A program made the translations under genes and the position numbers. The notes beneath the pieces are model-generated. The model did no database searches and had not been told where the DNA came from. It was given only the letters and a program-made list of their open reading frames with translations. A DNA stretch of 64,000 nt from Schizochytrium sp. TIO01 (lineage: Eukaryota > Protista > Bigyra: Labyrinthulomycetes): contig SMSO01000014.1 in the NCBI GenBank assembly GCA_004764695.1, positions 4,722,845 to 4,786,844 of the forward strand. The letters are read 5' to 3'. This document shows positions 22,378 to 50,220 of the stretch, one piece after another; the first letter of the stretch is position 1; every line of letters starts with the position of its first letter.

Positions 22378-24950
22378 TTTGAACGTTTCGCAGGCTGCGA
22401 GAGTCTTCAAAGGTATGGTTTCAACCACGCAGAAAGTCAACAAGCAAGGCTCAATCAATCTAAGCAACTTCGAAACCCAGTGTAGATAAAGCAAGCTCCC
22501 CGTGAGGCAGCTTGAGGACGCGAAGGCTTTCTACTCCTGTATTGTGGCCACTACGAGCTACGCTCCTTGGCAGCACCACTGGATGGTTTGTTCACGGCTG
22601 AAGTACTTCAAGCCTGAGCAAGCAAAGCGCAGGGCTTCAGGTTGACGGTGCTTTTGTTATCTCCGAAATTGAATCTCGAGTTTTTATCTCAGTTCCGCTG
22701 TGTGGAAGCATAAAGGAAAGAACGTGGTTTCGGTGAAGAGTATTGCGTTCATTGCGTTATGCTGAGTCTCCGCAATGCTGCTTACTGGTAAGTCGCGAGC
22801 TAAGTTTGTCCGTGTGGTCAGTACTCTACACCAAAAAGAACAATTAGTAAAACAAGGTTTGAGGAACTTTTCCAGTACCTAGGAAAGAAGAAAACAAGGT
22901 TGAGGCATCGTCAACTTACTTTTACTGGGTTCTCGTCTTCAGAAAGAAAGTCTTCAAGTGAGGTCGCCCTTGTAAGACTTGAAAGGTCGTCTTGGAGCGA
23001 GAAGATACGTTGCTATATGCACGACTCAGAGGGTCAGTTCTTGAGCCTCTATTTGTAGATGTAGGAGATAGATGGATACCTTTTATTCAAGTGATCAACA
23101 CGGAGTATCTATTTCCTTCTGTGGTTTTTGTTTTGACACTGTACTCTTGTATGAATGTATTTCTGGAGAGATATTTGGACGTCCAGCTACGTCAGAGTCT
23201 AGTAGCCATGTTTTCCTTGGGAACCGAAGTCATGGCCTAGAGTACGAGCAAACTTCGACTATCATGGCGCTCTTGTTGCGCAAGTAAGGAAGCTAGTTTC
23301 TTGCTTATAGAAGAAAGATAATCAATCCTCTTGACTTGGAAATCTTAATCTAAATGGTTTTTGTAGACAAAAAGTGTAGCACCTCTAGAGTAGTGATCCA
23401 TGGCTTACTTTCGAGAGATTTGACTTCGCTTACAATCGCAACGAGATCTTTAGAGCACCAGGATGATAGAGAGACCCAGGCACATCTACAATATTTCCAC
23501 TTCGCGGGGCAGAGAGTGAGTTTGGTTTAATCATGGTAGTCGAACATCGCCTCAGCTCACGCAGCATTGGTGCGAAGAAATTAGGACTTTCAAGTTCAAC
23601 AAGCATCGCTGTATTGCTTTTCGCAATTTCCCCTTCAAAGAACCCAGGACGGAGTATTGAAGAAATCCTAGTCAGTAAATTCGCAGTGTGAAACTGCTTC
23701 AGCAAAATCATTCGAGCGAGCAAGAATTACGCAACCGCAACCTTGTCATAAGAGTGATTGGCAAGGGACAGCTAAACCCTGATATGCTGTTCATTACTCC
23801 CAAACCACTTCATCTTCAATCACATCTATGATGGCGGTCTCGAAGGCCCACACGCGCTACCTATTTGGAATGTAGTCGCAAGAGCACGGGCATTCTAAAA
23901 AGCACGCGGGTAATGTCCTCATTATACACACTCGCAAGACCAAGTTTGAGGAGGTGTAAACACGAAATCTCAAGGTCTAAAAGTCTATTGAGGTGCGAAG
24001 TTCTTCAACCAAAGAGTGAGAGGAATGGAAATTTGCGTGGTCAATCTATTTATGCACCCTCCATGAAACCTTCCCATGTGTGAACTCTTCTGTAAAGACG
24101 AAACCGATCTCGATTGGTTTGGGCACCAATGTGCTCCGTCACTAATTTTCGTAGACCCAATACGCTCAATGAAAGCGCGTGTGCAGGTCTTCAAGACCCG
24201 AGGCCTTGCATCCACGAAGCAGTGTTGCGCTGCGCTTTTAACTTTCCTCTGCGAGGGCCGGGGCGCCCAAGCTCGTTTGAGCTTTGGGCTCCTTGCGCAC
24301 GCACACCGATCGTCCGAACGAGCGAACTTTTCAGGGTGTATGAATAAATGAGTAAGCTGCCAGGAGATTGGTCTTCCTCCTCAATTGCTACGTGGCAAGA
24401 GTCGCCATGAAAAGATTGAGCTTGAGACGACTAAGAGATAGATCTCTGCTTTGATGTGGAGCTTGGGATATGAAAACGGGGACAACAAGAGCTCGACGCT
24501 GCCTCTACTTTGGCAGATAGGTGAGATAAGCGCTTGCCGACATGGCGAATAGAGTCACTTGCAATTGCAGTGGGACATCAGCTTTGACTGAGCTTTGGCT
24601 GATCGACTCACGTCGTCTCTCTGCAGGAGTGCAATAGGCTTGAACTCCAGTAACTAGGTACCTGCGACGAGGCGCCTCAAGGTTCTTTCTGTGTGCAAAA
24701 TAGCGTACACCTGAATGCCAGAAGGAATGGTACTTTTACAAAATACTTGTATTTTTTTTAAATAACTTTTTCAGCCCCAAAGAAGAAAATGCAAGCCCCA
24801 ACAGAAAAAGTTGTTTGCAAGCAGAAAAGAAAAGGCAACTGCTGTAGACCTATCGGATAGTATCTCCCTTGGCCTGTGCTTTCCACCGAAAGTGAGAGCT
24901 TTGTGTGGAGCTTGCGCTTGAGCTTGAACCCGAGGCAGCAACGATCTTGC

Positions 24951-25449: not shown

Positions 25450-28400
25450 ATGAAGCGGCTTTCGCGGAGGCTCTCCCGTGTGCGCACAGGCCGCGGGGCC
25501 CGCGACGCAAGCTTGCAAGATGGGCCTTCGGCCGCAGAGCAAGAAGAGTCCGGGGATGTGCGGAGTACTCTTCAAGATGAGCACGTGCAAGAAGATGAGA
25601 ATCACCTTTCGTCACCAATATCACAATGGGGGCCACAACAGCGGAATTGATGAGGGCGACAGTTTTGAGGACGATGAGAATCGTGTGGAAGACAGGATTG
25701 CAGCTTGGGGTGATGAAGAAGGAATTGATGGTGTAGAGCAGATCAGAAGAGGAAGGCTCGTTGTCGACCTTTTAAGGTGCGCATCGGAACCAACAGGATT
25801 TGATGAGGGAGCCTTCATTTTAGAGAAATTAAGGCAGATTCCAGAGGCAGCACCTTTCGCTCAGATACTTGTATCACAGATCTCGTCAATTCAGGCTTTT
25901 AAGGAGCTCACAGAGGTAGATCTTATTCGACTCGGTGTGGACTCCCGTCTCGCACGAAGTATGATTGCCATTGCCAAGCAGAAATGGCACCGTGGTGAGA
26001 GCCTAGACCTGTCCATGGAGGACATTACAAGTCTTCCACCGGGACCATTACATCTCTTCGCAGACGTAAACCTCAGCACATGTATCCTTGAGGAGCTCCC
26101 CGACGACCTTACCGTAAATGGCAAGCTCAATCTGAGTTTTTCAAGCAAACTTAAAGTCCTGCCTAGCAATCTCCACGTTGAAGGCGATCTTCTTGTTGAG
26201 CGCTGTATTCGCCTTCGTGAGATTCAAGAAAACATTTTTGTCGGCGGCTCACTGGTCCTTAAACGCTGCGAGGCACTGGAACGGCTGCCCATCCGCATGG
26301 AGCTTCTCAAAGACCTCGTTCTTGCTTCCTGCAGGTCGCTCACAACCCTACCTGACGATTTACATATCCACGGCCACCTCAACCTAAAGCGTTGCGAGAA
26401 GTTTAAAATTTTGCCCAACAGACTCCAGGTAGATGGAAGGTTAACGCTACGCTACTCTGGTGTTCGTGCCTTACCTGAAGATATAACGCTCAATGGTGAT
26501 CTTGATATTGCTGATTGCGACGGCTTTCACCTATGCGAAGGGTTCGAGCTTGGCGGCTCACTTTTGCTTGATGAATGGACATTCGGTGATTCTTTCCCTC
26601 GTTCTTTGCATATCAAGGGTAGCTTGGATCTTGAAATTATGTCTTTGGCTAATCTCCCACCTGTCCGAGTTGACGGCACGCTACGCATCGGCTCTTCCTT
26701 GAGAACGATTGAATCACCTTTGTATGTTGGTAAGCACCTCGCGATGATCTCTTGCTCTGCAGAGATACCCCAAGGAACCATAGTAGAAGGTAGAGTTGAC
26801 TTCATACGCTGCCATGGACGCCGTGAGCTTCGTGGTGTTCACGTTGGATCGGCGCTTGTTTTGCAGTCTTGCTCACGAATCAAACTTATTGACGATATCG
26901 AGCTTGACGGGACTCTGCGTATTGAAGATTGCAACTCTCTAAAACGAATCGGTTCAAACGTCTCGGTGAAAGGTGGTGTTGTCATTCGAAACTGCCACAG
27001 ACTTAACACGCTTCCTGAAAACTGGCAAATCTACTCCCTCGACATTGTTTCTGCATCCCTTACTGCCCTTCCCTCAGGTTTACAAGTCAAGGAGTTCTTC
27101 CGGGTTTCAGAATGCCCTATTGATCACCTCCCTGATGACTTGGATGTGGGGGGTAGCGTGGAGATTCTCTGTGATGTAGTAGAGCTTCCGCCATCTCTGA
27201 GCAAAGTGAATGGAGACCTTGTTATTCAATCGAAAAATATTCTAGAACTCCCAAGTCCCCTTCGAGTCGCTTCATCGCTCCGTGTATCATACTGTGAGAA
27301 ACTTAGACATCTTGACGGTGACCTTCGTGTCGGCTTTGATGTATCCGCGAATAGCTGTCCAGCACTCCACACGCTCTTACCAGACAGCTTTCACGCCTTG
27401 GGGTCCGTGTCTGCAACAAGTTGTTTTGCGCTCACCAAGATTGGACAAAACGTCCAAATTGAAGGTAACCTCAGTCTCGAAGATGCCGTTCAACTGCAAG
27501 AGTTAGACAATATCTACATTGGGCAATCTTTGTTCATGAGTAACTGCTCGCAATTACAACGCGTTGGCGACAACGTAAGCACTGGACTTGATATGATCCT
27601 TCGAAACTGTATCTCATTGACACGAGTGCCACGCAAGGTAAAAACTGCGGGCGTATTTTCTCTAAATGGGTGCACTTCCATGGAAACCTTGGATTGTGAA
27701 CTAGACATTGGTTGGGATATTGATTTACGAGGAACTTCAATTACACAACTTCCCAAAAAAGGACATGTGCGTGGGGACTTTTTTGCAGAGTACCTCAAGA
27801 TTGAGGAGTTGCCCGCCAAATTAATTGTAGATGGCCACATTGGCCTTCGGGGGTGCACTCTGCTCACACGCATTCTCATGCCTTGGAATACAGTGTACTC
27901 TATCGATTTGTCGAGTACCAAGATGATCCGTCTGCCAGACAATCTGCACATTAAGGGTGACTTACTTTTGTGTAAGAATGATATGGAAACCCTCCCTGCG
28001 GGGCTTCGTGTTGAAGGTCAACTTAATGTTTCTGGGTGCTGGCGCTTGCGTTCCTTGCCTGACGATCTCTATGTTGGTGCATCAATATTTGCTAACAATT
28101 GTACTCTGTTATCCACGCTCCCCAAGGTTGTTCGTGTACAGGGCGATTTTGGTCTGGCAAACGCCGTCGCACTTACCGAACTTCCAGACGAGCTTGAAGT
28201 ATCAGGTCGCTTGGACTGCAATGGCTGCTCGTCGCTGTGGTCTGCAGGGCAAGAACTGACAGTGTATGGAAGCTGTACATTCGCCATGTGTGTGAGTTTA
28301 TCGGCTTTGCCAGAAGATATGTATGTCGGTGGCGACCTCGATTGCTTTGGATGTGCTTCGATTGAGTCTTTACCCCCTGAGCTTTATATTGGCGGGGCAC

Positions 28401-29593
28401 TGGTTCTTGCCGAATGCATTGGTATTTCTACATTACCTTCCAGCTTGCTTAACTGGGGACCCATGGCTGGAGGTGGTCGCCATGTGATTGATGTTACAGG
28501 GACCTCGATCTTTGAAGAACATTTGGATGAGTTGCGCGCCCAAGCATCAACCTCTGTAAATCTAGTTGTCACTCGACCTAATGCTTCTCCAGAACGCAAC
28601 TTTACAAACTTACTGAAAGCGGTGGAGTTCTGGTATGCTGCTGCTATGGGGGCTGGGTCCTCTCCTGAAGATCAAAACCAAATCCAAGAAGATGGGCTAA
28701 AGTTGGGCGATATGGTCAATGAAGTGGTACCTAAGATCAATTTGCGCGATATTCTACTTTTCCTTAGCAAACTCACGGTCGCGAAGGAATATAAGCGCGA
28801 GGATCTTCGCCAGTCACTCGCCAAGCGTGTTGTCGATGTTTTACATCTCTTGGCCGACGAAGAAGATGCGCGTGAGGAACTGCTAACTCGCATGGGTGAC
28901 AGTGTTGACGCATGTGGCGACAAGCCTATTCAAGCACTCAATCAAATGGCTGTGATTGTGCGCACGGTACATGCAAGGGGGCGTCGCGAGGCATTACGGG
29001 AGTTAGCAGTTGGCATTGCTCGGCTTGAAGTTGTGCAGCGCCACGCCCAAATGAAAGTAGATTCCTTCCACCGCCCTGTGGATGAAGTTGTCATCTTTTT
29101 GCGCTTTGAAGTAGCTTTGGCTCCCGAACTGGACCTGCCGGTACCAGCTGTGGACCAATTATTTCCTAACTTTGTACTTGTTACTGATGATGAGCTAAAT
29201 GCTGCTAAGGAAGAAGCCTTGCAAATTACAGGCCAAGGGGAAGCATTTGAGGCCTGGCTCTCGCATTGGTCTGAATGGCAGCGCCAGTTGCGTCTCGAGG
29301 CTGCGAAAGAACTTTCGTTTGAGCGACTCAAACGCAATTCACGTCGGTTCAGTTTATCGTGGATGGATCTCTTTGGGAATCGCATGGACGATCCTATCCG
29401 TATTGGGAAAAACTCAACAATTTGGAGCATGCAGGATCTCCTTCGCCACTGGGTTCGAACGGGCATGGACCTGAACAATACGCCCCGAACTATTGAAGAG
29501 ATCCGCCACATGTCCCGCTGCAAGTCACTTCCGCGTAAAGCATCTCAAATTCCGGAGCTTCTCACGGTGCAGGAGCTCGATGCTGAGACTTAA
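25450..29593 (+). CDS. SAM-like + leucine-rich repeat + NEL (IpaH/SspH-type) E3 ubiquitin ligase + U-box-like protein, ~1380 aa; probable +1 frameshift at G5 25628-25632
   Basis: ~22-aa repeats LPxxLxVxGxLxLxxCxxLxx span ~26000-28450. The C-terminal region matches NEL motifs: FLSKL, DACGDK (C-x-D), RLEVV, DEVVIFLRFEVALAPELDLP, VTDDELNAA and FEAWLSHWSEW. The track start at 25478 is GTG; the ATG at 25450 is in a different frame. Confidence 0.85.
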
Positions 29594-30308
29594 GAAGGCT
29601 ATGGACATAACAAAAATAAATGCGGTTTAAGTGAATAAAATGAATAGTAATAGTTTGCGCTTTTTCTGTTGTGTTTGTTAATTCAAGAAAAAAGTTAAGA
29701 TAGAGAGGACTTTAAAGGCAACATTCTTGACAAAAATTGGTGTACAATGATTGAAGGCTTTCCTATCTCAGTCCATGGAATTAATACTTTCAAAATTTGG
29801 TACGCGCTTCTTAATTATTGCATATGTATCCGATTGTGTTATAAAAAAATAGTCCTCCTTTCCGAATTTCCTACACTCCAAAATTGGCGCAACGTCTTTG
29901 ATGTGAATCATCTTAAAAAAGGTTATTCTGTATTCTTGGAAAAATTAAAAAAAAAATATAATCCTTTGTTCGTGTTTTAACTTGAAACGATGATCTCTCA
30001 AAATTTAGCTTGCGCAATATGCCGCTTAAGCACCTGGTATGTAAATCCATAAAATGACCAGGATACCATCTGAAGAGCTGTGACTATTCTGTTCGTTCAT
30101 GCGCTATCATTCATGATATAGAAGGCACTGTGGTACCTACAAAATAATTTGCTTTCCTGATAATTTAACATGTATGAACGTTTCTTGTAAGTAGCATCTC
30201 TCGTCAACTTTGAACAAACATCCTCAAGGACTTATCCAAAACCATCAAACAAAGCTCGAGAGCGCCAAACAAACTCAGTTTACACTAATAGTCGCGCAAT
30301 ACGCCCCA

Positions 30309-30962
30309 ATGGCAGGCATCGAGGATGGCCACCACGAGGGTTGGCGTCGGTGGATGGATGCCGCCGAGGAAAAGGCCGTTCGTGAGGCATCGAGTAACGT
30401 GTCAGAGCACCTCAAACAGGTCTCCACCGCTCCTCTCCTAGCCTTGCACGAAGTTCAAACTCATATTCGTGAGCGGGGACTCCTTCGTCAAGTGGTCGTG
30501 CGTGATGAATTGCTGCAGACACTCACGAATTTGCGAGAGGGGGCGGCGAGTGCATCAAGGTCTTGCGGCGAAATGGGTCAGAACGGCAGCAAATGTGTTA
30601 AAGCCGCTGCGGACCGCGTTGAGAAGCTATCCGGGCGCATTGCTGTTCTCCAAGAGCGCCTTGAAATTGTTTCAGACATCCACCGTGATGTGCAGAAGCC
30701 CAAGGCTGCTCCTTCGAGACTACGACGTGCCTGGCAAAGATCAGGGCTTGGACGACGGGAAGAGACCTCGGAAGCGGATTCATTGCCAATTGGCGTTGGC
30801 CAAGGGCTTGACAACGAGCTGATCCATGGAGAGGTCGACATCGACGAATATGCTATGCAAATATCAAAACTTGCTCGGACCTTTGCAGAGCTTGAGGAGG
30901 CGAACAATAGGAAACTCAGCAAGCGGAATAGCAGTGGCAGTGCAAGTGGTTCTCAAAAGTAG
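30309..30962 (+). CDS. Putative BORC subunit 8 (BORCS8/MEF2BNB)-like coiled-coil protein
   Basis: First ATG at 30309. VSEHLKQVSTAPLLALHEVQTHIRE resembles the BORCS8 motif (..LANEPSVALYRLQEHVR..) as I recall it. Confidence 0.55.
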   Translation: MAGIEDGHHEGWRRWMDAAEEKAVREASSNVSEHLKQVSTAPLLALHEVQTHIRERGLLRQVVVRDELLQTLTNLREGAASASRSCGEMGQNGSKCVKAAADRVEKLSGRIAVLQERLEIVSDIHRDVQKPKAAPSRLRRAWQRSGLGRREETSEADSLPIGVGQGLDNELIHGEVDIDEYAMQISKLARTFAELEEANNRKLSKRNSSGSASGSQK

Positions 30963-31657: not shown

Positions 31658-34324
31658 CTAACGACGGCCTACCTTGGCTTGGACGCGAAGCTGCTGTTGC
31701 TTACGCAAGTTTGAGATCATTTCTCGAAAATTGTTGTATAGGTCGTCTCCGACAGCGTTTGCATCCACGGTCAATATTCCTCGAGTGCTCGCACTGTTTG
31801 TCGTTGAAGATGATTTTGCAGATTGCTTGGTAGCGGCTGTGTTGGAGGTTTTTGTGCGCGTTGGAGTAGTGGCTCGAGAACGTGCTTGATCTACAGTCGG
31901 ATTTGGTGATGAAGAATCCTGTCCACTCTCGGGTACAAATGCAGAATTCGTTTTTCCAGCACCAGACTCAGCTTCGGCTTGTTTTCGAGCCCGTGCACAC
32001 GTTTCACGACAATATTGAGTGAAGCGGCTCTGAGACCACTTTGCAAGCATCGCACCGTCCATAGCAGGTGGTGGTGCAATGTGCGCAGGTGCTTTCGAGG
32101 CCCACCATTCACGAACCTTTTCAACCGACCATTTGCGAGGATCTGCAGCCTTTGCTTCATTGTATGCTCGGTTGGCTTTTAGAACAGATTGGCTTGCTAC
32201 ATCTTCGACAGGTAGTTTGAAGTGTTGAGGCTTCTGCTCGCCACGGGACTCTCCCATCATGACTGAGACATTTGTGAGAGTACTCAAAGAATGTTCAGTG
32301 TCACCAGAGCTAGGACTGACCGTAGCGATGATTGAGGTTTTCCCCTCAGGGTCTGTCAATGCTGACTTGAGAATACGTGTAAGCATGCTTGCACGAAACG
32401 GAACAAAGGCTTTGCCTTCCGCCTGCGCTCGAAAACAGTCTTTGAGCACCATCAAAGACTTATTGATTTCTGCGCCTTCCCTTGCAAGGCGCGCGTCATG
32501 ATGAAGGGAGTCTTTGTTTCGCTCTGAGCCTGCCAAGTCCACTAACATGAGCTGGCCATCCCTGTCTTCGTACTTGATATTGATTTGGCAAAATGCGTGT
32601 GAACGGGATGAACGATCATGTACGCCTGTTTCACAAGTTGCGCGTGCAAGCTGGCCAAGCTCAATGCATTCTAAGAGTTCTTCTTGGGAGTATACAGGCT
32701 TCGTTGTAAGACCTGGTAAGCGCAGAGATCCATCGCCGTCTTCAAGCATGCGCACTGCACTACCGGCATTGCTTTCATTCGCTACCCCAGCAGAGGGGTT
32801 CCCAGTGTAAGATTCCTCAGGATCAAGCAACGTCTCTGCAGACGGGTACTCTTGACTGTGATCGTGAGTTTCATAGGGGTATAAACCTGCATCTGAGGCT
32901 CGCGGTGCCAATAAATCGCGACATTGGGTGCCGTAGAGCTCATACATGGTAAGATAAACTTGGGCGCGATTTGCAGATCCCAAAACATGAAATATTGTTT
33001 GTGCTGCAAGGGTAAGAATGGCCGTCATGGTGTACGTTTTTCCTGAGCCGGTTTGTCCAAAGACGAAAGCACTCGCAAGCTTGCCTGCAAGTGCATGCTG
33101 CACAAGGCCAATTGTGGTTTCTCTGTACACCTGAGCGTTAGAGGTGAACTCATCAAAGACGCGATCGAATGAGAAAACCTGGGGCGTCATTTTCATTCCA
33201 CGCATATCAGCTTTCATACGTGTATCAAAAATAACAACTGCATTTGGTTGGAGAGCGCCAGTTGCATCAACAACGTCAAAGTCCTGGTCGATTTCCTTGT
33301 TAAACATTGGTCTTTTGCGCAAGAACACTTGAAGGCGTTTAGAGGCTTGCTTGGGCGATAGAGCACGAGTTGCTGCACTTGTGACGACATCGGAATGTTT
33401 GCGGCGGCCTGCTCCGGACTGGCTTGTCAACGTGGTTTCTTGTTGGTCACGTTGTCTTCGATGAGGTTGCATTGCAGCAAAGTTAAGGCGAACAGGGGTC
33501 ACTGGTGATGCTTTTGGCGGGACTTCCACAGATAAACTTTGTGCAGTGTGTTTGCTGCGAAATCCCTTTGGTGTTGCGGAGTGCTGTCGAGAGATTCTGC
33601 GATGAGTTTTCTGAAGATGCTCAAGGAAAGCCGCTCCCCGTTGTGCATCTCTTGTACACATCATCTCAAACCAGTCCACCATGCGCATTTCGTCTTCTTT
33701 TAAGTGCAATGGACTCTTTGGCGGCGGTGAGCTGGGCGGCGGTGGAGGTGGAGGTGGCGGCTGCGAATCGTCTGAAGTGGTTCGCATATTTCTTAGCCCT
33801 TGGTTTGGAGACGATGGCGGTGGAGGTGATGCGGTTGAGGACATGCTTGAGTTGCGTCGTCTCGTCGAATTTCTTTGATTACGTCTACGAGGCGAGTGGT
33901 AGCGCTGATGTTGACGTTGTGGATGTTGGCCAGATCTTCTGCGCTCCGGACTGTTTGAAGCGTTTTGCCTTGACCTTGCATGTTTCTGCTCTTGATAATT
34001 GCGCGTTTGATAATTGGTCTCATCATCCAGATCATCCAGGTGAAGATCTAAGTGATGATTTTGGTGTTGGTGATGGCGATTTCGATGTGGGCGTTGATGA
34101 TGGTTTAGATGCTGTTTCTGTGCAGCTGAGGCGGGTGACGAGGACCTTTGTGTCAGGAGCGTGCCGTTGGGTCCAAGTTCTGCTTCTTTGCGAGCTCTCC
34201 AAGTGCGGATAGCGCCCATGAAGTCCTGGCGGTGATGTTTGCGAGACGTGCGCTTGTCATAATTCTTGCGAGGGTCGAACTCTCCTCCGCCTTCGTCCAC
34301 AAGCCTGCTATCTTCGTTGCCCAT
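31658..34324 (-). CDS. Kinesin with internal motor domain, kinesin-13-like
   Basis: VFLRKRPM, FSFDRVF, P-loop GQTGSGKT, SSRSHA, LVDLAGSER, AEINKSLMVLKDCFRA and VPFRASMLTRILK. The motor is central. First ATG is at 34324 (MGNEDS...). Confidence 0.93.
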   Translation of the reverse strand: MGNEDSRLVDEGGGEFDPRKNYDKRTSRKHHRQDFMGAIRTWRARKEAELGPNGTLLTQRSSSPASAAQKQHLNHHQRPHRNRHHQHQNHHLDLHLDDLDDETNYQTRNYQEQKHARSRQNASNSPERRRSGQHPQRQHQRYHSPRRRNQRNSTRRRNSSMSSTASPPPPSSPNQGLRNMRTTSDDSQPPPPPPPPPSSPPPKSPLHLKEDEMRMVDWFEMMCTRDAQRGAAFLEHLQKTHRRISRQHSATPKGFRSKHTAQSLSVEVPPKASPVTPVRLNFAAMQPHRRQRDQQETTLTSQSGAGRRKHSDVVTSAATRALSPKQASKRLQVFLRKRPMFNKEIDQDFDVVDATGALQPNAVVIFDTRMKADMRGMKMTPQVFSFDRVFDEFTSNAQVYRETTIGLVQHALAGKLASAFVFGQTGSGKTYTMTAILTLAAQTIFHVLGSANRAQVYLTMYELYGTQCRDLLAPRASDAGLYPYETHDHSQEYPSAETLLDPEESYTGNPSAGVANESNAGSAVRMLEDGDGSLRLPGLTTKPVYSQEELLECIELGQLARATCETGVHDRSSRSHAFCQINIKYEDRDGQLMLVDLAGSERNKDSLHHDARLAREGAEINKSLMVLKDCFRAQAEGKAFVPFRASMLTRILKSALTDPEGKTSIIATVSPSSGDTEHSLSTLTNVSVMMGESRGEQKPQHFKLPVEDVASQSVLKANRAYNEAKAADPRKWSVEKVREWWASKAPAHIAPPPAMDGAMLAKWSQSRFTQYCRETCARARKQAEAESGAGKTNSAFVPESGQDSSSPNPTVDQARSRATTPTRTKTSNTAATKQSAKSSSTTNSASTRGILTVDANAVGDDLYNNFREMISNLRKQQQLRVQAKVGRR

Positions 34325-35814
34325 GGCGACTCTATTTTCCCCCAAACAAACAGGTCGCTGGTGTGCAAGCACACCTAAAGTTACCTCGACTGCCGATCCA
34401 CCTCGGCTTCTGTCTCTAGTGTGTCCAAACACTCACGATAATCTTGAGCTTGAAGTTCCGTTTCGTGTCACTAAGATTGCTCATCCCATCTCTCGCAACA
34501 TCAAAGTTCTTCAAGTTGGTCGTTAAATTCATTCCATTCTCTCCTTCTAATCTTAACTACTACTATGAAAAAAACGTTGTTGTCTCATATTCATTGATTC
34601 TCTGTAGGGTAGTCCTACTAAGTACATAGTCACCATCAAAACCAGGGTCAGCGGATCAAATCATTGTGCAATGAAACGCGCTCTCAGATGACTTTGGGGT
34701 GGGTGGTATTCTCTGACGTGGTACGAGCGCAATTCCTGAGCACCTTGCGACCCGATGAATTGACTGCAAGACCTTGGATAATTCTTGGTGTACTCACCAA
34801 ACAGTGTTGGCATGAAGAAGCTAATACTGGGATCTAGAATTCGTTGATAGTTATTATGAAGACAAAGAAGCTTCCGCGCGATACTTGAATGCATGAGATA
34901 GAAAATGCATAGACACGCAAGTACTGCTGCTGACACTGCAAGAACTAACGATGCCGCATGCAATTTCAAAGACTATCAGAGGATGTTGATTGATACGTGC
35001 TTAGGTTGATAGCAGACATTTGTCGAGCACCAGGTAGCCTTCTAAAGAAAAGTCTATTGTAGCAATGGAGGCGGCACATGTTGTCTCCTCTGCTTTAAGA
35101 AAGCATGCCTACCTAGGTGGTACCCAAATACGGAGCAGGATTGCATTTCAACTCTTCCCCCTTTGACCCGGAAAATATTAAAAAAAAATATATATAAAAG
35201 TGAATAACAGGAAAACACAAGAGCGCACACCATGGCGTATTATTTCAAGTTGCGAATTCTGAAGAATTCCAGTTGAGAGATTCGCACGTTCTTACCTGCA
35301 ATTTTCTTGATTCTCGGCAATGCGCAGATATTTGCAAGCCCTCTTGTAGCAGTTGCAGGTGGCTGCTGGGTTTCTTCTTATCTCTGCGAGGCTCACGATG
35401 CTATCTATTCTTCAAGTTCTTCTTCACGTAGGTACTGTATCCATATCTAGAGGTAGTTAGGTTGTGTTTTTATACTGGTCTAGTACTACAGAATGTTTGC
35501 ATAACTTCATATTCGACTTCGTGTCATCAGAAATTCTCTCGCAAAAGCCGAGCTTTCAGAGAAGTACCCGTCAACAAAACTTCAACCCAGGTGATTTAAT
35601 CGCAAAAGCTCATTCATTAGCAGAACTTTATGCTCTACGAATCCGCTTCTTCCATGACCAAAAGCTTCAGTAGCAGCAGGAGCATCAACGAACTTTTGCG
35701 CTGCATTGTTATGCAGGCAACTATTCCTTTCTACAGATTGCCTCAGTGGATGTCAAAGGGATACCTAGGTATCTCAGCTCTCGTTCCTGGCCGGCAGCAC
35801 TAGACACTGAGGTA

Positions 35815-35868: not shown

Positions 35869-36274
35869 AGTCTATCCTCAGAAATCTCCAGGAACCAACG
35901 CTGACCTGGACAAATCGTAAACAGTCAGCAGGCGTCAATGGACGCTTTCTATACAGACGCGGCCTGAGGACGCGGCTCCTTGCCAGCACATAGTCAGACC
36001 CCGTTCTCACTTGCCAGCAACAGTAATGAATCCCTCCGCGCTGCGAGCACTAGATCCTGGGCACTTTGGAGATGTCTCGTCTCGGTCTGCTCTGCTATGG
36101 CTCTACTTGGAACGCTTTGCTTTGAAGCTGACCTTTCCAGGATGATTCATCGTCAATGTGCTGCTACTCTCGCTGAAGCTTCTGGAGCTGCTCAGGGTTC
36201 CTACGTGCACTAATGTATTCATCAATCAAGGTTCCACAACGAGATCGCGAGCTCAAGCACACCTTGCGCCACAC

Positions 36275-36325
36275 GCAGCAGCAGCAACAGCAGCAGCAGC
36301 AGCAGCAGAAGAAGAAGAAGAAGAA
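36275..36325. repeat. (CAG)n(GAA)n compound microsatellite
   Basis: Read directly from the sequence. Confidence 0.9.
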
Positions 36326-37723
36326 GTGGGACTGTCTTGAACACCTCGTCCCAGTTCAAGCGTTTCGAAGAGATCCCGGAATTCCTGCTTCCAGCTTTGC
36401 AGAACAACGCAGCGCCCACTGGAGGCAAGTAAAACGATCGAGAAGGTGCGCAGCAAATGGCGCCCGGAGAATCCCCGCTCACTCCATTCCATTTCGTTCA
36501 TGCTGGCTTGGCGTAGTTTTCCCCCGCGATGAGGTAGGCATTGAGGCAATCCTCTGCGGCAGAGTGGGTAAACCACCTGCTTTGCCATGGACAGGGCAGG
36601 CATTCACCTCCCTTGCTCTTACGGATTTCCCACTTATTTGACGGAATTCCTTGTTTGGAGATCACCCGGCACCGGGCCGCTCGCAAAGGACGGGCGTCTC
36701 CCGGATCCAAATTCTTGGACCTCCAGCATATTCAGCGTTTCTGCGTAAAAGAAAACAGCTAGCCAGGCACTGACACCTTTTCACTATCTATTTAATTTTA
36801 AAATAAAAAATTGAAAGAAGAGTAATAAACAAATAGATAATTTTGTTTTTTATTTTTATCAAGAATGTGACGGTCTTTTTGAGATTAAAAATAAATAAAT
36901 TTTAATTTTTTTAAATAAAAATTAAATACATAAAGAAAAAGCGTTAAGAAGAAATGAATTACCCTGGGCAGTAGTAGGTACATAGGATCTTGTCTAGCTA
37001 GGTATTATGGTGATTGTACTAAGGGAGTGAAAGGAAGAAGGTAATATAATATACTTTCGGCCCCAATCTTGAGAAGGGGTTTCTTGATGTTAGGCTGAAG
37101 TGCCGTAATTGTGAACATCAAAGACATCGCTCGCCAACTACCTTTGGGTCGCGTGGCTGCTTTCTTTCCTCAAGTTTTGTAGCACCACAATGAAAGAGAG
37201 CAGCCAGCCAGCCAGCCAAACAAACAAATAAACAAACAAATAAACAAACAAACAAACAAACAGTCAGTTCAATACCGTGACTCAAATGATCAAAGACTAG
37301 GCACACGTATAGTCCCTCCCTAGTAGTTTCTCTTCTCAGTTCAAGCCTAAGACCATGTTAGGCGCCGCCGTAGTTCATTTCTTTCTTTCTTTCTTTCTTT
37401 CTTTCTTTGTTGTTTGCTTATGCTAACAAAAGTCTCACGTTGAAGAGAGAGAGAATGAGAGAGAGGGAGAGACGGAGAGAGACGTTCCACGGAAGATAAC
37501 GAGAAGCGGCGCGCTCGCTTCGATGAATTTCGTTCAACTCCACCCGCGGATCTTCTTCTGCGATCAAACTAGCGAGGCGTCTCAGGCATATCAGGCAAGC
37601 AAACTAGCGAGCCGGCGAGCTCACCACCAGTCTGAGAGGATTTACATCGAAAGATCCTGAAGAATATCGAAAGATCCTGCTTGACCCGGGAAAGAAGCCC
37701 AACTTAGCGACATCTTGAAGCCC

Positions 37724-37879
37724 CATCTTGGAGATCATCTTGGAGATCATCTTGGAGATCATCTTGGAAACCATCTTGCAGATCATCTTGCAGATCATCT
37801 TGCAGATCATCTTGCAGATCTTCTTGCAGATCTTCTTGCAGATCTTCTTGCAGATCATCTTGGAAACCATCCTGGAAAC
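37724..37879. repeat. 12-nt minisatellite, 13 units
   Basis: Variants CATCTTGGAGAT, CATCTTGGAAAC, CATCTTGCAGAT and CTTCTTGCAGAT. Confidence 0.95.
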
Positions 37880-38479
37880 CACCTTAGTCACCGAAAAGGC
37901 CTCGCGCTCGAAGCTGTCTGTTTGGCTGTCTGCCTGGCTGGCTGGCTGGCAGGGTGGCACCGAAGAGACCCGTGCTCGAGCCCTGGAGGGGGTCTCAGGG
38001 CGCCTGTCTGTGGACGCCGACGACGAAGAGGAGGGGGAGGGGGTCCATCTCTAGGCTCTCGATTGCCATCTGCAGCAGAGGTTGAAATGGGATTTCTAAC
38101 ACGCAAAACCCCGGCAACTACATTCATTTGATTTTCAAACTCGAACTTTGAGTGAGGTGGCGAGGCGGCAGCAGCCCGAGTCCTCGTCTGAGGCGTGGTC
38201 CGAGTGAACGAGAGAGTAAGTGAGTGAGCAGTTGAGCGCTCTGCCGGTCCTCGGGCTCTTCAGCTTTGTCGCCGCTGTGGCAGGAATGCTTTGAGGGTCC
38301 ATGAACCAACCCGAAGAAGCCCGCCATGAATGCACGCAGCGCAAGCATTGCAAGCAGTCCAAGCAATGCTTGCAAGCTTCTTCAAGTTCGAAGCTGCTGG
38401 CCCATGCTCGCAGCACGCATTCACGTCGAGGCCATGCTGTTATCCTGAGAGCTCCACGACGACTCGAACTCCACGATGA

Positions 38480-38598
38480 TTCGAATTGCTCGCTGATTTG
38501 AATTCGAATTGCTCGCTGATTTGAATTCGAATTCCACGCGGATTTGAATTCGAATTCCACGCGGATTTGAATTCGAATTCCACGCGGATTTGAATTCG
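38480..38598. repeat. 23-nt minisatellite containing the palindrome GAATTCGAATTC
   Basis: GATTTGAATTCGAATT(GCTCGCT/CCACGCG); four full units at 38495-38586 plus partial units on both sides. Confidence 0.95.
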
Positions 38599-40866
38599 TG
38601 ACCATCAGACTTCGTCTCGTAAAGAGAACCACCAAAGTCTTTGGCGGGCTTGAGTAGCCTAAGATAGAGCGAAGCCCTCGTTTGCGCTACACTACTTTAC
38701 TACTGTATGTTTTCTGGAAGACTTCGCTTCTTGCAACTAAAACACTTCCAATTCTTCAAATTTGTCTGTCCGGAAATTCAAAAGGATCTTTTTCTATTTC
38801 TTTTTCTTTTATTCGTGTAAACAAAACAAACCTTCCTTCCTTCCTCCAAAAAAGCTCGAGTGAAAGTTTTGCTGCTTTAAAAACGTTTTTAGAGATACAC
38901 TTTTAAAAAGAGTGTTATGCGCCGCGAAGAAAAGTATTTAGTTAGTTATAAAAGATCAAATGTTAGACTCACCTACGATAAACCTTAGCACCTGTAGGGG
39001 GAAACTGCTCGCAGAAGATAAGGAAATCCAGTGACGCGCGGAAAGGGAAGCACGAATGCAATTACGGAGGCACGCTCGCAGTTGCGTCACAACTGTGGGA
39101 AACCTGTGCCCCGCAGATGCGCACAGACCTCTCAACAATCCCTCAGTGGGCCTCCAGCCCTTCAGTCTGTCTGTCTGTCTGCCTGTCTGTCTCTGTCTTT
39201 CTCAATTGGCTCCTTATTTTTCCTTTTACTTTTCAAAAGTTCATTTTCATGGTTTTTTACATCGACGAAGGAGAACCGCCATACATCCCCAAAAGAAGAG
39301 ATGGTCGCCTCTTCGTGGCGGAGAGCTCAGTCCTGAGCTTTCTCGCGGCGGCTGGAGCGAGCTTGCTTTCCCTCGAGCGCATTGACTGACAGCTTGCATT
39401 TTGGCACAGCAGATCGCAGTCGGTCACAGTCGTCGCTCCGGATCCTGCTTTAGGCTCGACGGTCATTTCATTTCATTCACGCCAGCCACGCTTGCTTCGT
39501 TTGAGCGAGTTCGCAGCGTCAGGAGATCAAGGTTTCCTTCGTGGCGCTGATGGTCGCGACCTGGCGGCAACGGAGCCCAACGATCGCTCGATCACCTCGC
39601 GGCTCGCTCAAGGCGACTGTAGATTCCCAAGCTCCATGCCAAGCCTCCCTGAGACGCAGCAAACAAACCAACCACGCAACGAGCTTGCTTCTTGATTCAA
39701 ACCAAACGAGCCCGAGAGCGTCGTCCTGCACGGCGAGGAGATCGCCACCGCGGCCTTAGGAGCAGAGCTCTAACGAATCCACAGGCTGAGAGCGAGTTTG
39801 ATTGAACTCACGACGGTCTGGCCAGCGAGCCAAGCTAGCTAGCTAGCTAGCTAGCTGGGCAGCCAGCGAGCGAGCGTGTGGGCGCTCGATTTGGCATTCA
39901 TTCCTTCGTTCATGCTGGGGTGTGCGGGACGATCTCCGAGCAGCTCAGGCGCACCCTGGAGGCGTCGAGCTCGAGGTTCATGGAGACAGAGATGCCCTGT
40001 GCTTTCAAATCCTGAAGGGTCGGAGGCTTGATTGCCTGGGCACGACCTGCTTTCGGGCGAAGACGGAGACGGAGACGGAGACGGGGATGGAGATGGCTAG
40101 ATAGCTGTCCTTCTGCCGCTGCAGTGGCGATGGCGAAGGCGTGTTTGGTTGGGTGTGTGCCTAGCTGGGTCCTCTGCAGTCTTGATTTCGAACTCGACGT
40201 GGACATGCTCGTGGCCGTCGAGAGCAGCCACCGCCCGGAGCGCTCTGGCAGTGGGCAGTCAAGACAGTCAAGAGTGTTCGCTCACATGATGGTCATGATC
40301 CAAGGCTGCAATCCAGAGTCGATCGGTTGCAATCGATCGCGAAGCAGCGGTGTGTGCCTGGCTGCCTGGCTGCTTGCTTGCTTGCCCTCGTATGTCTCTA
40401 AATCAATAGCCCCGCTTCCTCAGGCTGTCTGCAAGTCCGTGGCACTACTTCGGAAGCCTCTCTGCGAAGCGCGTTAAACGTGGAGCGGCATAGGAAGTCT
40501 GATACGAACGAAGTTGATTGTCCTTTACATTCTGTTGAAAGACATGGGTCCCTTTTCGCTCGATTTCTCGCGGCTTGAAGAGTTTTCAAGTCTTCTTGAG
40601 TTGATCTGTTTGTTTGTAGCGACGACGCACAACGGCGATTAATGGCATTACTTAATCTGGCAAACACCTCGAATTAACTCGAGTAGACTCGAGTAGAGCA
40701 GGTAGCTAGCAAGCTAGCTAGCCCAGGCACGACTCCGAATCAATCGTTCGGTACGACTTACTCCCATGTTTGCGCACGCCTCGTTTCGGCGCCTGGCCCT
40801 CACTGCATTGTCCTCGAGACTCTGAGTTTTCACGAAACCATTCACGAAACACCTGCATAATTCTGG

Positions 40867-40934
40867 GTAGGTAGGTATAGGTAGGTAGGTAGGTAGGTAG
40901 GTAGGTAGGTAGGTAGGTAGATAGATAGATAGAT
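40867..40934. repeat. (TAGG)n/(TAGA)n microsatellite
   Basis: Read directly from the sequence. Confidence 0.9.
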
Positions 40935-42433
40935 GGTACCTCCCTCCCGAAAGGTTTTGTGATTGCCAACTTGAGAGCCTCCTCGACAACGATGATGGTG
41001 ACACAAAAGAGGTGGTTTAATCGTGGTGACGATTGATCCTCACAATCGGAAGCCAAGCCCCTTCTACAACTCCATCGTCATCATCATCATCATCATTCTG
41101 AGCTATCTAGGTTAAGTAGGTACCTACCTACCCACTCTTTACTCCGTGGCAAGAAGGCACACTCCAGAGCAGGGGCGGTCCAGGGATTCCATCGTGCCTG
41201 AGACACCGCCTTTCTGTTGCTGCTGCTGCTGCTGCTGTTGTTGTTGCTGTCGATTTGCTGTCACCAAGCAGAGTCAGTCCTCAGCTGCAAGCAAGTTTCC
41301 TACCCTTGAACAGGGCGAGGCGGCATGCGTCAGGCTTGTTGACAATTGAATCACCATGGATGGCATCGAGCCGTTCCAGGGTCCCCTTCCCAAAACCAGC
41401 AGAGCCGCCTGCAAGTGCCAACCAAGAGCAGCGAGAGCGATCTGCACCACCATCTGCTCAAGATCTCTCTCTCTCTCTCTCTCTCGCACACACCCAGTTA
41501 CTACTTGAAGGTACCTTGGTACCTCCTACCTGGCCAGAGTAGAAGAGAACCGCTGCAAACCGCCTCAGCAGTTTTCAAGGAAAGGAAAGATACCAACTTT
41601 GAGAAGTCCGGAAAGCAAATAAACTTTCAAGACGGCGTACGACGATCATCATCCATCGATGATCGGCTGCACGGATCGTTCAAGGGGAGACTCCGAGAAT
41701 GCAAGCGTGATGGCTATTATCGACGAGGTGGAGATCCACCAGCAGTACCTGGAAACCGATTAGCAATGCATGCTTTTGCTTCGTTTCGCTTGAGTTCTGT
41801 CTTACAGCCAAGCCAAGAGGTTTTCACCTCTGGGCTCTGGCTGGATGGCCATAGTACCTGTGCATCCGTCTATCATCTGCTTGCTTGCTTGCGCTTGGAA
41901 CGCTTCGTTTTGCGGCGGTGACGGTGATGAAGAGTGGGTTTGTTTCCGCTCACTCAAGGGTTCGTGCTCTTCCTTTAACTCGAGCGAAGAACAAGAATAT
42001 GCCAACTAAAAACGTGCCGCGCTCAGGTCGGTCTGTATGATGGATGGCGCTGAGGCAGCGGCACGCGATCGAAGGAGGTTGGTACCTCTGAGTCTCTTTC
42101 TTTCTTCTTGGGACTGCCGTTGTCTTCTTCACAGTTCAAGAACGACAAAAGCATCCGCGCTTTGACTAAAAGAGAGGGAAGAGAACCGAGCAAGCAAGAG
42201 TGTGCGGGCGTATCCATCGCTTGTGATCGCCGTGCTTGCTCTGCTCTTCAGATCTAGGGATAGGTACTTTCCAGTAGCCCCGCTGTTGTTTTTCCTGCGA
42301 CTGTTCGTCTGCCTTGGCGTGCACGCTCGTTTCGCAGAAGGGTCGCTTGGATGATCAAGCGTTCAAGTTCTTTCGCAGCCACCGCCGTCACCACCACCCT
42401 CGTGATTAGCATGATATATCTGACTGCTAGCCT

Positions 42434-42610
42434 TGATTAAATGATTGAATAAATGAATGAATGAATGATCAATTGATTTAATGATTGAATGAATGAATGA
42501 ATGAATGATTAATTGATTTAATGATTGAATGATTGAATGAATGAATGAATGAATGATTAATTGAATAATTGATTAAATGATTAAATGAATGAATGAATGA
42601 TTGAATGATT
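42434..42610. repeat. Degenerate (GAAT/GATT/AAAT)n tract
   Basis: Read directly from the sequence. Confidence 0.9.
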
Positions 42611-45600
42611 GCAGGAGATCTTGGACTCAGGGGTCTGCCAAATGAAGTCTCCGAGAACCGCATTGAGATCGAGATCGAGCTCGAAGGCCCCTACGCTGCT
42701 AAACTTGCCTGCCTGCCAGGTAGCAAGTACTCTTCTGCCCTGCGTGATCTCTGAGTTGCAAATGCTCGACCTCCACAAATGCCTTCGCGACGAAGGGTCT
42801 CCCGAACAGCCTTCTTCAGCTTTCTCTTTCCATCGCTTCTCTTTGTTTTCTTCCCACACAACTTGACAACAGTTTGTTACTTAGTTAGTTAGTTACTTCG
42901 TTAGTTAGTTAGTTAGGTAGTTATCCCACTTAAAACCCGCCTCCGTACCTACTACATACCTCTAAACAAACAAACAGATGAACAAACAAACAAACAAACA
43001 AACAAACAATTAATCAAACAACAATCAAAGAACTCTTTCTCAATTCGAGTTGCCGTGAGAGGAAGCGGCTTGATTGCCGAAGTATGGCTATTATCCCACT
43101 ACTCTAAGCCGCAGAAAGAAGCCAAGAAAGGGGGCCTTAGAAAGTTTAAGTTTCTTTCTTCTTCTTCTTCTTCTTCTTCTTCTAGCTCGTTCTCTCTGAT
43201 ACTACTGGAAATGGCTTTGCTCGGCGACGGTTTCCTGCGCAGAAGAGAAGAGGGGGCCTCGTGGACAGGAACTTTGGGTACGCGTGCGTGCGATGCCGAG
43301 ACCGAGTGAAGCTGGAGCTCGCAAGAAAGCACTACGCCTCATGAGCGAGGAAGGAACAGAAGCGCCTCATTCCTGCCTCAGCTTGGCTTGGCAGTTTTCT
43401 TTTGATTTTATTTTATCTGCAAAAGAGAATCGCCGCAGATCACAGAGAGAGAGATAAATAGAGAGATAAATAGAGAGGAATGGAGTGAATTCGAGGATTC
43501 CTTTCTCAGAATGTCTGTCCAGAAGAGAGCGAAAAGCTACGCTCGGCCTGAGGTCAGAATATCTCTTCTTCTGCTGCTGTTCGTTTCCTCGTGGCCTCTA
43601 GAGAAGCGGAACAAATAATGAATGAATGCATGAATGAATGAATTAATAATCGTGATTGAGATGGCGAAAGAAATCATAAAAGGTTACATACAATTCGCGA
43701 CCGTTGATCTGTTGCATTTTAATCTTAACAACATTAAAAATAACAAATCCAAAACATGTCTCTGTGAAAGAGAGGGGAATCAAGTACGTAGATCAGCCAC
43801 GATTTGCCTTACTGCCGTTCGTTCGTTTGCATATGTCGAACTTTTTGATTGAAAGCTAAGGCTAAAATCGAAGAAAGGGAAACGACTCAAGAGCCGTACT
43901 CAGTACACGTGATTTGGCCACATGACTACTTTAACTAAGAGAGTCCTGGTTACCGCCATTATTGGCAAAGCTCTGAAAAGATCGGCTTAGATTGAATAAA
44001 TGAATAAATGAATGAATGAATGAATGAATGGAGGAAGGATTTGGGCTCTCGAGACCTGCGAAATCAATCGTCATGCGAAGCACTCGTTTCTCCAGGAGGG
44101 GCGTGTGCTCACGAGGGCCGCTTGAGACTTCGAAGAGTCTCCGAACTCCTCGTCCTGCGAGCATTTCGATTCAATATTCACAGGATTTTCAACTCGATTC
44201 TAGTTCGAAGTTCGTCGCTTTCTCCGCAACCAAAATCTTGAACAGAATGAGTTTTCCTTTTTATTCACAAACAAACAAAAGAAACAAACAAAGAAGCAAA
44301 GAAACAAACTGAAAACAGAAGAATGAATAGCAATCATTCGAACAACGGAGAGACTGACTGAGAAAAACTCGCTATCTTAGAAAAATTAACATTATTGAGC
44401 TCCGAGCAGGCCTGGCTCGCTGCGGGAGTTGTATACAATGAACCTGTCCCGACTGGGGGGCGGCAGAGCTATCATCTTGAGCGACTGCGGGATGCGATAG
44501 AGGAACCCGCTGCCATATCACTCTGGGCACTGTGGGTGTCGGGGCGAGCAGCAACCTCCATAGTGGGCCCCGCAGCACTCCGGCTCCGGCGGCTCCCGTC
44601 CCTGCTTTCAGTGGGAAGCACACCCTGGGAGCGCCGACAGGGATTTCTTTCTTCATTCAAAAACCGACATATTGAACAAACACAAATTTAAAATTTTCTA
44701 TTTTTATTTTTATTAAATTAAAATAAATGTTCATTCTTAATTCTAAAAAAAGAAATGAATAAAAAAGCAGAAAAATGAAAAAAAAAAGAGGGCATACATA
44801 AGAACTTAACTGGGTAGGTCCGTGCTCTGTTCTTCTTGTTACCTGCTCCCATCCCAACAGGTTTTCCTCCTATAGAAAACACAAGTTCGATCTTCTTTGA
44901 AGTTCTTTGAAGGGACAGACAGACAGCAGTTCCTCCGCCATCGTTCCACAGCTTCTTCTTCTGCCGCCAAACTCGGCTCTTCGCCGCCTCATCGGCCGGT
45001 ACACACCTTTCGCCCACGGCTTTCGCGCTTCGCTGTAAACCCAGCCAAAACAAACTTGAGGCCAAGACCTCGATAGCTCAGTGAGAGAAGAAAGCAGCGC
45101 AAGAAGAAAGCAAAACACACATAATACATATACACATACATGTATGATGTGTGTAAATATAATGTTATATGAGCGTGTTTATGTGTATGCGAGAGAGTGT
45201 GTGTTTTGCTTTACACGTTGTGTATATGTATAAGCGCGGAGGACCATCACAGCAGCATCCCGCCTGCCATGAACCTCTCCGCCTGCGTGGCGTCCATGCC
45301 GTGGGGATTCCTCGGTGCTCGAGATTGGGCCGGCCGATCACCCGTGCGGGCTCGTTCCCCCCTGCAGGCCTCACGCGATGCGAGCGGCCTGGGTCGACTC
45401 GGCTCGAGGGGTTTTTGTGGCCATGGGTTCTGTGAAGATCCGTCGCCTCTTGGAGCCCCAAAGAGACCACGAAGTCATTAATTGGCATGGGCGGCGGAAA
45501 GAGCGTTGCGCACTGTATAGGCACGTGCAATAATACGCGCAATCAATAAGGCGGCCTGCATAGCCAAGAGCAGCGGTGGCAGCACTTAAGGAGGCAGAAA

Positions 45601-48600: not shown

Positions 48601-48915
48601 TGGCCTGAGACGAACTCGCTCAATAATTCATTGATTCATTCATCACTCACTCATGCATTGATTCATTCGATCTATTGACGTCGCTGATCTGTGGCCCGAA
48701 TGAGACAAAGTGCTCCATGTTCCACCATTGAAAGGCCTTCGAGCATGAATGCGGGCTTGTTCGAAGTTGACGCGTTGGGCTTTGGCGATAGTTTGATTTG
48801 ATCAGAAATGGCCAAAGCAATCGATCGAATTTGACGTGATGGCCGATAGTGCCTTATTTTTAGTCTTCTTCGTGAAAGGAAACGAAACTGATAACACGAA
48901 ATGGGAGCGTAAGGA

Positions 48916-49150
48916 AATGAATGAATGAATGAATGAATGAATGAATGAATGAATGAATGAATGAATGAATGAATAAGTACACGAGTAAACAAATGAATAA
49001 ATAGTGAGTAAATAAATGAATAAATACGTGAGTAAATAAATGAATAAATACGTGAGTAAATGAATGAATAAGTACATGAGTAAACAAATGAATAAGTACA
49101 TGAGTAAACAAATAAATAAATTCATGAGTAAATAAATGAATATACAAATG
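48916..49150. repeat. (GAAT)n microsatellite grading into a 24-nt higher-order repeat
   Basis: About 7 units resembling GAGTAAAyAAATGAATAArTACrT start at 48983. Confidence 0.9.
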
Positions 49151-50174: not shown

Positions 50175-50220
50175 ATAAGCGCAATAAGCGCAATAAGCGC
50201 AGTAAGCGCAATAAGCGCAA
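50175..50220. repeat. 9-nt tandem repeat (ATAAGCGCA) x5
   Basis: Read directly; one unit carries a substitution. Confidence 0.9.

Follow-up and report, generated by a model that had tools for sequence, protein, structure and literature searches.

Introduction

Bacterial NEL ubiquitin ligases take ubiquitin from an E2 onto a catalytic cysteine and pass it to a lysine of a substrate that is chosen by leucine-rich repeats (LRRs), as set out in excerpts of PMC9320238. The same excerpts confine NELs to bacteria that live as pathogens or symbionts, and the NEL members listed in parts of PMC13720258 and PMC12591485 are all bacterial. In SspH1, the catalytic part (residues 405-622) is followed by a thumb (623-697) that binds ubiquitin-loaded E2 (E2~Ub), according to sections of PMC12506513. 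Here we describe an LRR-NEL gene in a 64,000-nucleotide stretch of DNA from the labyrinthulomycete Schizochytrium sp. TIO01 (assembly GCA_004764695.1, contig SMSO01000014.1, forward-strand positions 4,722,845 to 4,786,844), referred to below as the window. The gene (25450..29593, + strand) is intronless and encodes about 1380 amino acids, as delimited by its open reading frame (ORF), the database protein P0001 and DNA sequencing runs. From N- to C-terminus, the product comprises an acidic N-terminus, cap helices, a SAM-like insert, an LRR solenoid, the NEL core and a U-box.

With some reserve, we favour the interpretation that this is a nuclear LRR-NEL gene whose product retains the C-x-D motif and ends in a predicted U-box. 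On this view, it likely encodes a cysteine-relay ligase in which the U-box would dock the E2, and it would descend from an old transfer from an intracellular bacterium.

Results

A NEL catalytic core with conserved active-site residues

The NEL catalytic subdomain occupies 28586..29308 (+). Within it, 28748-29308 matched the Pfam NEL family (PF14496) with 87.1 bits (E 1.5e-24, cut-off 24) over model positions 28-222 of 223, and a PDB sequence search gave 12 matches, the top 11 being IpaH, SlrP or SspH1 (best E 1.5e-10) with the C-x-D motif aligned. An AlphaFold (AF2) model of the last 343 residues had a predicted local distance difference test score (pLDDT) of 90.1. When the NEL-U-box model was submitted to Foldseek, the top nine rows were all NELs, and VIA superimposed model residues 9-249 on SspH1 348-625 (Z 14.4, root mean square deviation (rmsd) 4.3, 218 residues aligned). 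In the ESM Atlas, the window domain had one weak lead (0.75), and bacterial NEL clusters appeared there only with P0092 as the query.

The predicted catalytic C-x-D motif is encoded at 28913..28921 (+), with the Cys codon TGT at 28913-28915. A second conserved Asp (29081..29083, +) corresponds in the alignment to the Asp that follows the Cys of IpaH by 60 residues, which is D397 of IpaH9.8 in the numbering used in excerpts of PMC9320238. Among the 83 rows of the clade around the window protein (see below), the Cys and the C-x-D Asp were present in all 83 and the second Asp in 81 (Glu in the other two), and these residues were kept despite long branches. The first-pass annotation, made from the letters of the window, had placed a NEL domain after LRR-type repeats and had called its catalytic residues intact, with the Cys codon at 28913-28915. 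The motifs it quoted are present and both statements were borne out, including by the Pfam profile and AlphaFold/Foldseek comparisons that it had proposed.

A predicted U-box fold in place of the E2-binding thumb

The structural match ends at SspH1 residue 625, the two-helix thumb is absent, and the model has a small beta/alpha domain in its place. This domain (model residues 264-332; 29351..29557, +) is predicted to be a degenerate U-box fold. VIA matched it to AvrPtoB, Ufd2, LubX, E4B, CHIP, Prp19 and RING domains with Z of 4.3-6.3, and Foldseek aligned it to the Prp19 U-box (prob 0.91, TMt 0.68). A profile built from the tails of 11 sequences had its best sequence match in a Prp19 U-box dimer entry (E 0.00092), and model residues 264-332 form a RING-like fold that lacks zinc ligands. 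Because the SspH1 match stops at 625 and the domain that follows is U-box/RING-like, the thumb appears to have been replaced by a U-box.

In the 83-row clade, the U-box retained a Trp in 72 rows, two Gly in 77 each and a D-P-V core in 55-68. Bacterial proteins of the U-box type have also lost the thumb, and in these the Cys was present in 64/65 and the Gly in 63/65; these conservation counts omit P0077, P0122 and L010. The locus L010 grouped with the chlamydial U-box types yet has no U-box. A complex prediction of the NEL-U-box piece with a UBE2D-like stand-in E2 from a giant-virus contig (L137), run without alignments, scored 0.00 and counts neither way.

A predicted atypical LRR solenoid

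The region ahead of the NEL core (25985..28560, +) is predicted to form an atypical LRR solenoid with a capped end and about 40 repeats of 20-22 amino acids (858 amino acids divided by 21), each with two strands. This prediction draws on the AF2 model of the N-terminal 965 residues (pLDDT 92.5), Foldseek and VIA. All 44 Foldseek matches listed were LRR-type or repeat proteins with low template modelling (TM) scores, and the VIA matches included 8z5u_0 (Z 22.7), LIC11098 (Z 19.9) and the XopL LRR (Z 17.4). The best match, 8z5u_0, comes from the structure of a polar flagellar motor; this chain of 180 residues aligned with window 25985-26600 at an rmsd of 2.2 and 27% identity. Pfam had no LRR family at cut-off, the best being LRR_EndoS (E 0.0012). 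The LRR-type repeats of the first-pass annotation stood as a predicted fold.

The solenoid is preceded by a helical N-cap (25697..25798, +), seen in the DSSP assignment of the model and by sequence inspection, and inspection also revealed a similar Trp-containing helix ahead of the LRRs in bacterial relatives. Between cap and repeats lies a small helical insert (25799..25990, +) that is weakly SAM-like: its helices are present in the model, and its matches to Pfam SAM_1 (E 0.083, below cut-off) and to the SAM of ANKS3 in the PDB (E 1.4) were weak. The paralog P0005 matches SAM_2 (E 1.3e-4) in the corresponding position. When the insert was used as the query of an iterative search, P0002 alone was retrieved.

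The gene resides in a eukaryotic nuclear genome

The NEL gene is a resident eukaryotic nuclear gene. In DNA run X2, a 12,091-bp contig spanned 24186-35000 and contained the NEL gene together with the entire kinesin gene (31658..34432, -; Pfam), at a depth of 29.9 compared with 31.9 on the upstream flank. Runs X1, X5 and X7 each joined the NEL gene to the downstream BORCS8-like ORF (30195..30962, +), which was identified by a Pfam match below cut-off and by synteny, the same neighbour being found in Hondaea. The DnaJ gene and the NEL gene were on no single contig together in these four DNA runs, one of which may be the source of the window assembly. At least half of the stretch was present in 20 of the 24 runs listed, from 11 studies. 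The synonymous third-position GC content (GC3s) of the NEL gene was 0.447, compared with 0.395-0.623 in its neighbours, and its codon use correlated with that of the pooled neighbours at 0.84, a figure helped by gene length.

Synteny with Hondaea follows from the Hondaea model P0002, which continues into a fused tail that shares 57% identity with the ORF downstream of the NEL gene in the window. This public model joins the NEL gene to the BORCS8-like gene and has lost the U-box end; the fusion is likely an annotation error. The first-pass annotation had argued for a resident nuclear gene among eukaryotic neighbours and had suggested examining its continuity with the flanks. Even contig depth and Hondaea synteny agree with this, and the continuity was established by short-read contigs up to the BORCS8-like ORF and the kinesin gene.

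A family of NEL proteins in protists

Searches with the NEL domain gave 591 representatives at E <=0.001 and 74 at 1e-30. We built trees on the catalytic core only, with U-box columns excluded; 242 rows were aligned, 11 short fragments were dropped and 202 rows were left after near-copy removal. All tree supports given here come from quick trees. The window protein fell in a clade of 83 rows with support of 96 (FastTree), and a quick IQ-TREE of 74 rows again gave the eukaryote clade (Shimodaira-Hasegawa-like approximate likelihood ratio test 96). Where the first-pass annotation, which had proposed a survey for paralogues, described one gene, these searches revealed a large family.

Named members of the clade are seven clusters of the thraustochytrid Hondaea fermentalgiana (P0002, P0006, P0010, P0012, P0024, P0030 and P0043), several Durusdinium-labelled models and an MMETSP transcript entry in the cluster of P0019. 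Judged by its nearest named relatives, the organism of the window is itself likely a thraustochytrid. The taxid in that MMETSP header points to an unrelated fungus and was not used. Nor did we take the Durusdinium and Acer labels as evidence of range, given short contigs, fused models and possible contamination; no paper on NEL records with these labels was found. The metagenome locus L080 has ALG6/8 and Spo11/TopoVI-A genes as neighbours.

A NEL domain was detected at E <=0.01 in 113 of 115 proteins scanned, out of 154. Their architectures included SPRY-LRR-NEL (nine) and ARM-NEL (four), with a few SAM or TPR fusions; some one-off architectures are probably mis-fused models, like P0002. The window copy and its Hondaea counterpart were 65% identical over the LRR part and 84% over the NEL, compared with 57% for the downstream neighbour. 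P0085 and P0076 represent one divergent clade member, present in four metagenomic records, whose LRRs are of another type that Pfam recognises; it was suspected to be viral, but no IMG/VR relative was found. P0077, on a long branch and sister to the eukaryote clade in a quick tree (87), combines a bacterial-type active-site sequence with a eukaryote-type U-box and may be an early-diverging copy.

Bacterial relatives and origin

The layout of cap, LRR variant, NEL and U-box also occurs in chlamydial genomes and in many metagenomic proteins without a taxon. NEL was found in 84 of the 400 Chlamydiota genomes searched, nine of which had the U-box type by match length, and NELs also occur in many proteobacteria. 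The window LRR profile scored 47-150 bits against three chlamydial U-box-type loci; against seven thumb-type NELs, it scored at most 6.5 bits in four and gave no match in three. U-box and thumb types separated on the core alone (supports 98 in FastTree, 92 in IQ-TREE and 97 in a 38-row tree). With thumb-type NELs as the outgroup, the eukaryote clade was nested among the U-box-type NELs, Chlamydiota included, while approximately unbiased (AU) tests (38 rows, LG+G4 quick tree) rejected its grouping with the NELs of Shigella, Salmonella and Yersinia (p-AU 0.00035).

These results suggest that the gene was likely acquired by transfer from a bacterium, as the first-pass annotation had supposed. A chlamydial donor is possible on the same sequence comparisons, at a little less than an even call. 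The phylogeny proposed earlier placed the clade with NELs of the U-box type, and not with IpaH/SspH. Descent from the IpaH/SspH type, as the IpaH/SspH-like label of the first-pass annotation would have it, was not supported: that grouping was rejected, the thumb is absent and the LRRs are of a different type.

No viral relative was found in IMG/VR with three queries, and no relative was found on plasmids. A 'Verrucomicrobiae' label on loci L003-L005 was set aside, as drawing genomes of the phylum around it gave the set already drawn for Chlamydiota. Separately, the chlamydial genomes G223 and G003 (loci L003, L005 and L083) contain several LRR-NEL-U-box genes each, in tandem in G003; G223 has 21 candidates, six of which were scored. 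One NEL of the U-box type, P0130, has an AAA ATPase instead of LRRs.

Reading frame and surroundings of the gene

The long ORF in the window runs from 25454 to 29593 (1379 codons, stop to stop). The ATG at 25450, given as the gene start in the first-pass annotation, is out of frame with it in the window assembly and meets a stop after 66 codons. A single extra base at 25605..25607 splits the 5' end of the frame. P0001 reads through these positions in a single frame and agrees with the window in 42 residues from the first frame and in 1326/1327 from the second, and the orthologs P0002 and P0003 have the same first five residues at the N-terminus. Since the base is missing in all four DNA runs and P0001 is continuous there, the frame break near 25607 is most likely an assembly error. 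The start at 25450 was therefore right by P0001, P0002 and P0003, and only its frame in the window assembly was not. One-base indels relative to three or four DNA runs also occur at window positions 21661, 22441, 23521-23524 and 29842, and the window assembly therefore contains several indel errors; that at 22441 falls within the FMN-reductase ORF.

A Pfam scan of 23 pieces of the window identified DnaJ with DUF1977, FMN reductase, kinesin, Arf and cofilin among the neighbours, and nine pieces had no family. Neither tRNAs nor notable repeats were found near the NEL gene. The NADPH-dependent FMN reductase (PF03358; 21688-22530, -) belongs to a family common in bacteria and is another possible transfer near the NEL gene. 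From 36000 to 51000, about 15 kb lack a long ORF, and six pieces scanned there had no Pfam match.

Discussion

Taken together, the window gene belongs to a eukaryotic NEL family that is both genuine and resident, with a predicted change in its E2-docking architecture. We propose that, with the thumb lost, a UBE2D-type E2~Ub docks on the U-box, which would take over the part played by the two helices in IpaH/SspH. Ubiquitin would then move to the NEL Cys as a thioester, and the two Asp would drive its onward transfer to a lysine of the substrate, which the array of about 40 LRRs would hold. As with bacterial NELs, the likely product would be K48 chains that lead to degradation. After the transfer, the module would have been duplicated and joined to SPRY-LRR, ARM, SAM and TPR domains, giving a substrate-selective E3 class of the lineage's own, in which the window copy would most likely act on a stable endogenous protein. 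In its widest form, this proposal is of an undescribed U-box-NEL relay that came from an intracellular bacterium, is now a labyrinthulomycete E3 family comprising the first native eukaryotic NELs and possibly acts against invaders, a combination on which we are evenly divided.

Several points weigh against the proposal. The U-box piece of the window protein had no match to Pfam U-box (PF04564), which was found in only 2 of 11 aligned members, weakly (best E 0.012). By the guidance that comes with the tool, a single U-box Z-score of 4-6 counts as middling. The U-box of the eukaryote clade is degenerate, and it lacks the Pro at the E2-face position; U-boxes use a Pro at their E2 face. The clade was labelled on the basis of the first tree, which makes its support partly circular, and an organism name is attached to only a minority of the 83 rows. 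As to the donor, the AU tests allowed the eukaryote clade both with chlamydial sequences (p-AU 0.65) and with U-box types lacking a taxon (0.44), and the rows most like the eukaryote clade carry no taxon.

The cellular role is the part of the proposal for which another reading survives best. The family could be one of innate immunity, in which LRR sensors ubiquitinate bacterial or viral proteins in the cytosol by the same chemistry. The many divergent paralogs, with seven Hondaea-named clusters, the swapped binding domains (SPRY-LRR-NEL in 9/115, ARM-NEL in 4/115) and the effector ancestry are in keeping with such a role, which we regard as a minority view but a substantial one. Set against it, the window copy is syntenic and conserved with Hondaea (65% over the LRRs and 84% over the NEL, compared with 57% for the neighbour), and few strain differences, among those listed, fall inside the ORF. 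A stable cellular substrate is favoured because this copy is syntenic and more conserved with Hondaea than its neighbour is; judged from sequence conservation, it would fit at least as well as defence or prey manipulation. The spread of binding domains in the family would still allow for a defence role.

An active NEL core might instead bind its E2 elsewhere, with the U-box serving as a structural cap or oligomerisation element. The degenerate eukaryote U-box, and the fact that its best sequence match is a Prp19 U-box dimer entry, would suit this alternative. We consider it unlikely, as the U-box sits exactly at the position of the missing thumb and also accompanies loss of the thumb in the bacterial U-box type, both of which favour the U-box as the E2 dock.

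The direction of transfer could also have been the reverse, the NEL-U-box layout having arisen in protists and been taken up by their symbionts. In favour of this, U-boxes are domains of eukaryotic type, many rows of the U-box type carry no taxon, P0109 is filed under a plant assembly, and the tree carries no inferred root. This scenario seems to us improbable against the presence of NELs in 84/400 Chlamydiota genomes searched and in many proteobacteria, the greater likeness of bacterial-type U-boxes to the canonical U-box and the nested position of the eukaryote clade under a thumb-type outgroup. Acquisition from a bacterium accounts for these observations better.

U-boxes are complete E3s alone, and the U-box could be a working RING-type ligase beside a NEL Cys that is vestigial or only hydrolyses E2~Ub; bacterial NELs do discharge E2~Ub without substrate (parts of PMC12506513). 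Conservation of the Cys and the Asps while the U-box drifted is the opposite of what this would predict, which makes it very improbable compared with a Cys relay. Contaminating bacterial DNA or a chimeric assembly that includes it, which a bacterial-type domain in an intronless gene might bring to mind, can be dismissed in view of the evenly covered contigs from four independent runs that tie the gene to eukaryotic genes, the neighbour shared with Hondaea and the host-like codon use.

Relation to known systems

In our literature search, neither eukaryotic NELs nor fusions of NEL and U-box were the subject of any paper found, and no description of the chlamydial/metagenomic LRR-NEL-U-box proteins came up, subscription papers and bioRxiv supplements lying outside this search. 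Chlamydial U-box-LRR proteins were reported in PMC4209131, where IpaH goes unmentioned in the sections available; the terms NEL and IpaH are absent from PMC4327156, no NEL term appears in the available parts of the Aurantiochytrium proteome paper PMC12221091, and neither term appears in four of its supplements. Databases already show automatic NEL matches or IpaH/SspH names on some proteins of the family. The Hondaea fermentalgiana proteins, which share the clade of the window protein and include its syntenic ortholog P0002, carry the database names disease-resistance, importin, ryanodine-receptor and nephrocystin, with NEL only as an automatic Pfam match.

Close relatives occur in Rhabdochlamydiaceae and other Chlamydiota and in metagenomic records without a taxon, whose LRR-NEL-U-box proteins share the cap helix, LRR variant, NEL and U-box with the window protein. 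Their mean identity to the eukaryote clade is about 27-33% over the core; their U-box is more canonical, their LRR arrays are mostly shorter, and no SAM-like insert was seen in them. The described NEL ligases (Shigella IpaH, Salmonella SspH1, SspH2 and SlrP, Sinorhizobium NopM, Ralstonia RipAR, RipAW and RipV) have the LRR-NEL order, helical fold, C-x-D motif and second Asp in common with the window protein. In contrast to these secreted (type III) bacterial effectors, the window gene is eukaryotic and nuclear, and its product, which belongs to a separate lineage, has a predicted U-box fold where they have the two-helix E2~Ub thumb, carries about 40 atypical LRRs against their 8-12 and contains a SAM-like insert. 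A native and expanded eukaryotic NEL family overturns the view of NELs as bacteria-only, and it would represent a weapon aimed at hosts that has been domesticated by a host. A natural NEL in which a predicted U-box stands in for the thumb is relevant to the way E2~Ub reaches the NEL cysteine, a matter still under debate, and because the host organisms are harmless and can be cultured, direct testing is feasible.

The fold of model residues 264-332 is shared with U-box E3s (Prp19, CHIP, Ufd2/E4B and the bacterial LubX and AvrPtoB), from which the window protein differs in having a U-box that is degenerate in sequence and fused behind a transthiolating NEL core. In RING-between-RING (RBR) and RING-Cys-relay (RCR) ligases, such as Parkin/HOIP and MYCBP2, E2~Ub is recruited by a RING-type fold, and its ubiquitin passes to a catalytic Cys outside that fold. 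These offer an analogy in how the protein may work, with no claim of membership: in the window protein the catalytic domain is unrelated, the order is reversed and there are no zinc ligands. The U-box-NEL relay proposed here would therefore add a further architecture of RING fold plus cysteine beside the RBR and RCR ligases.

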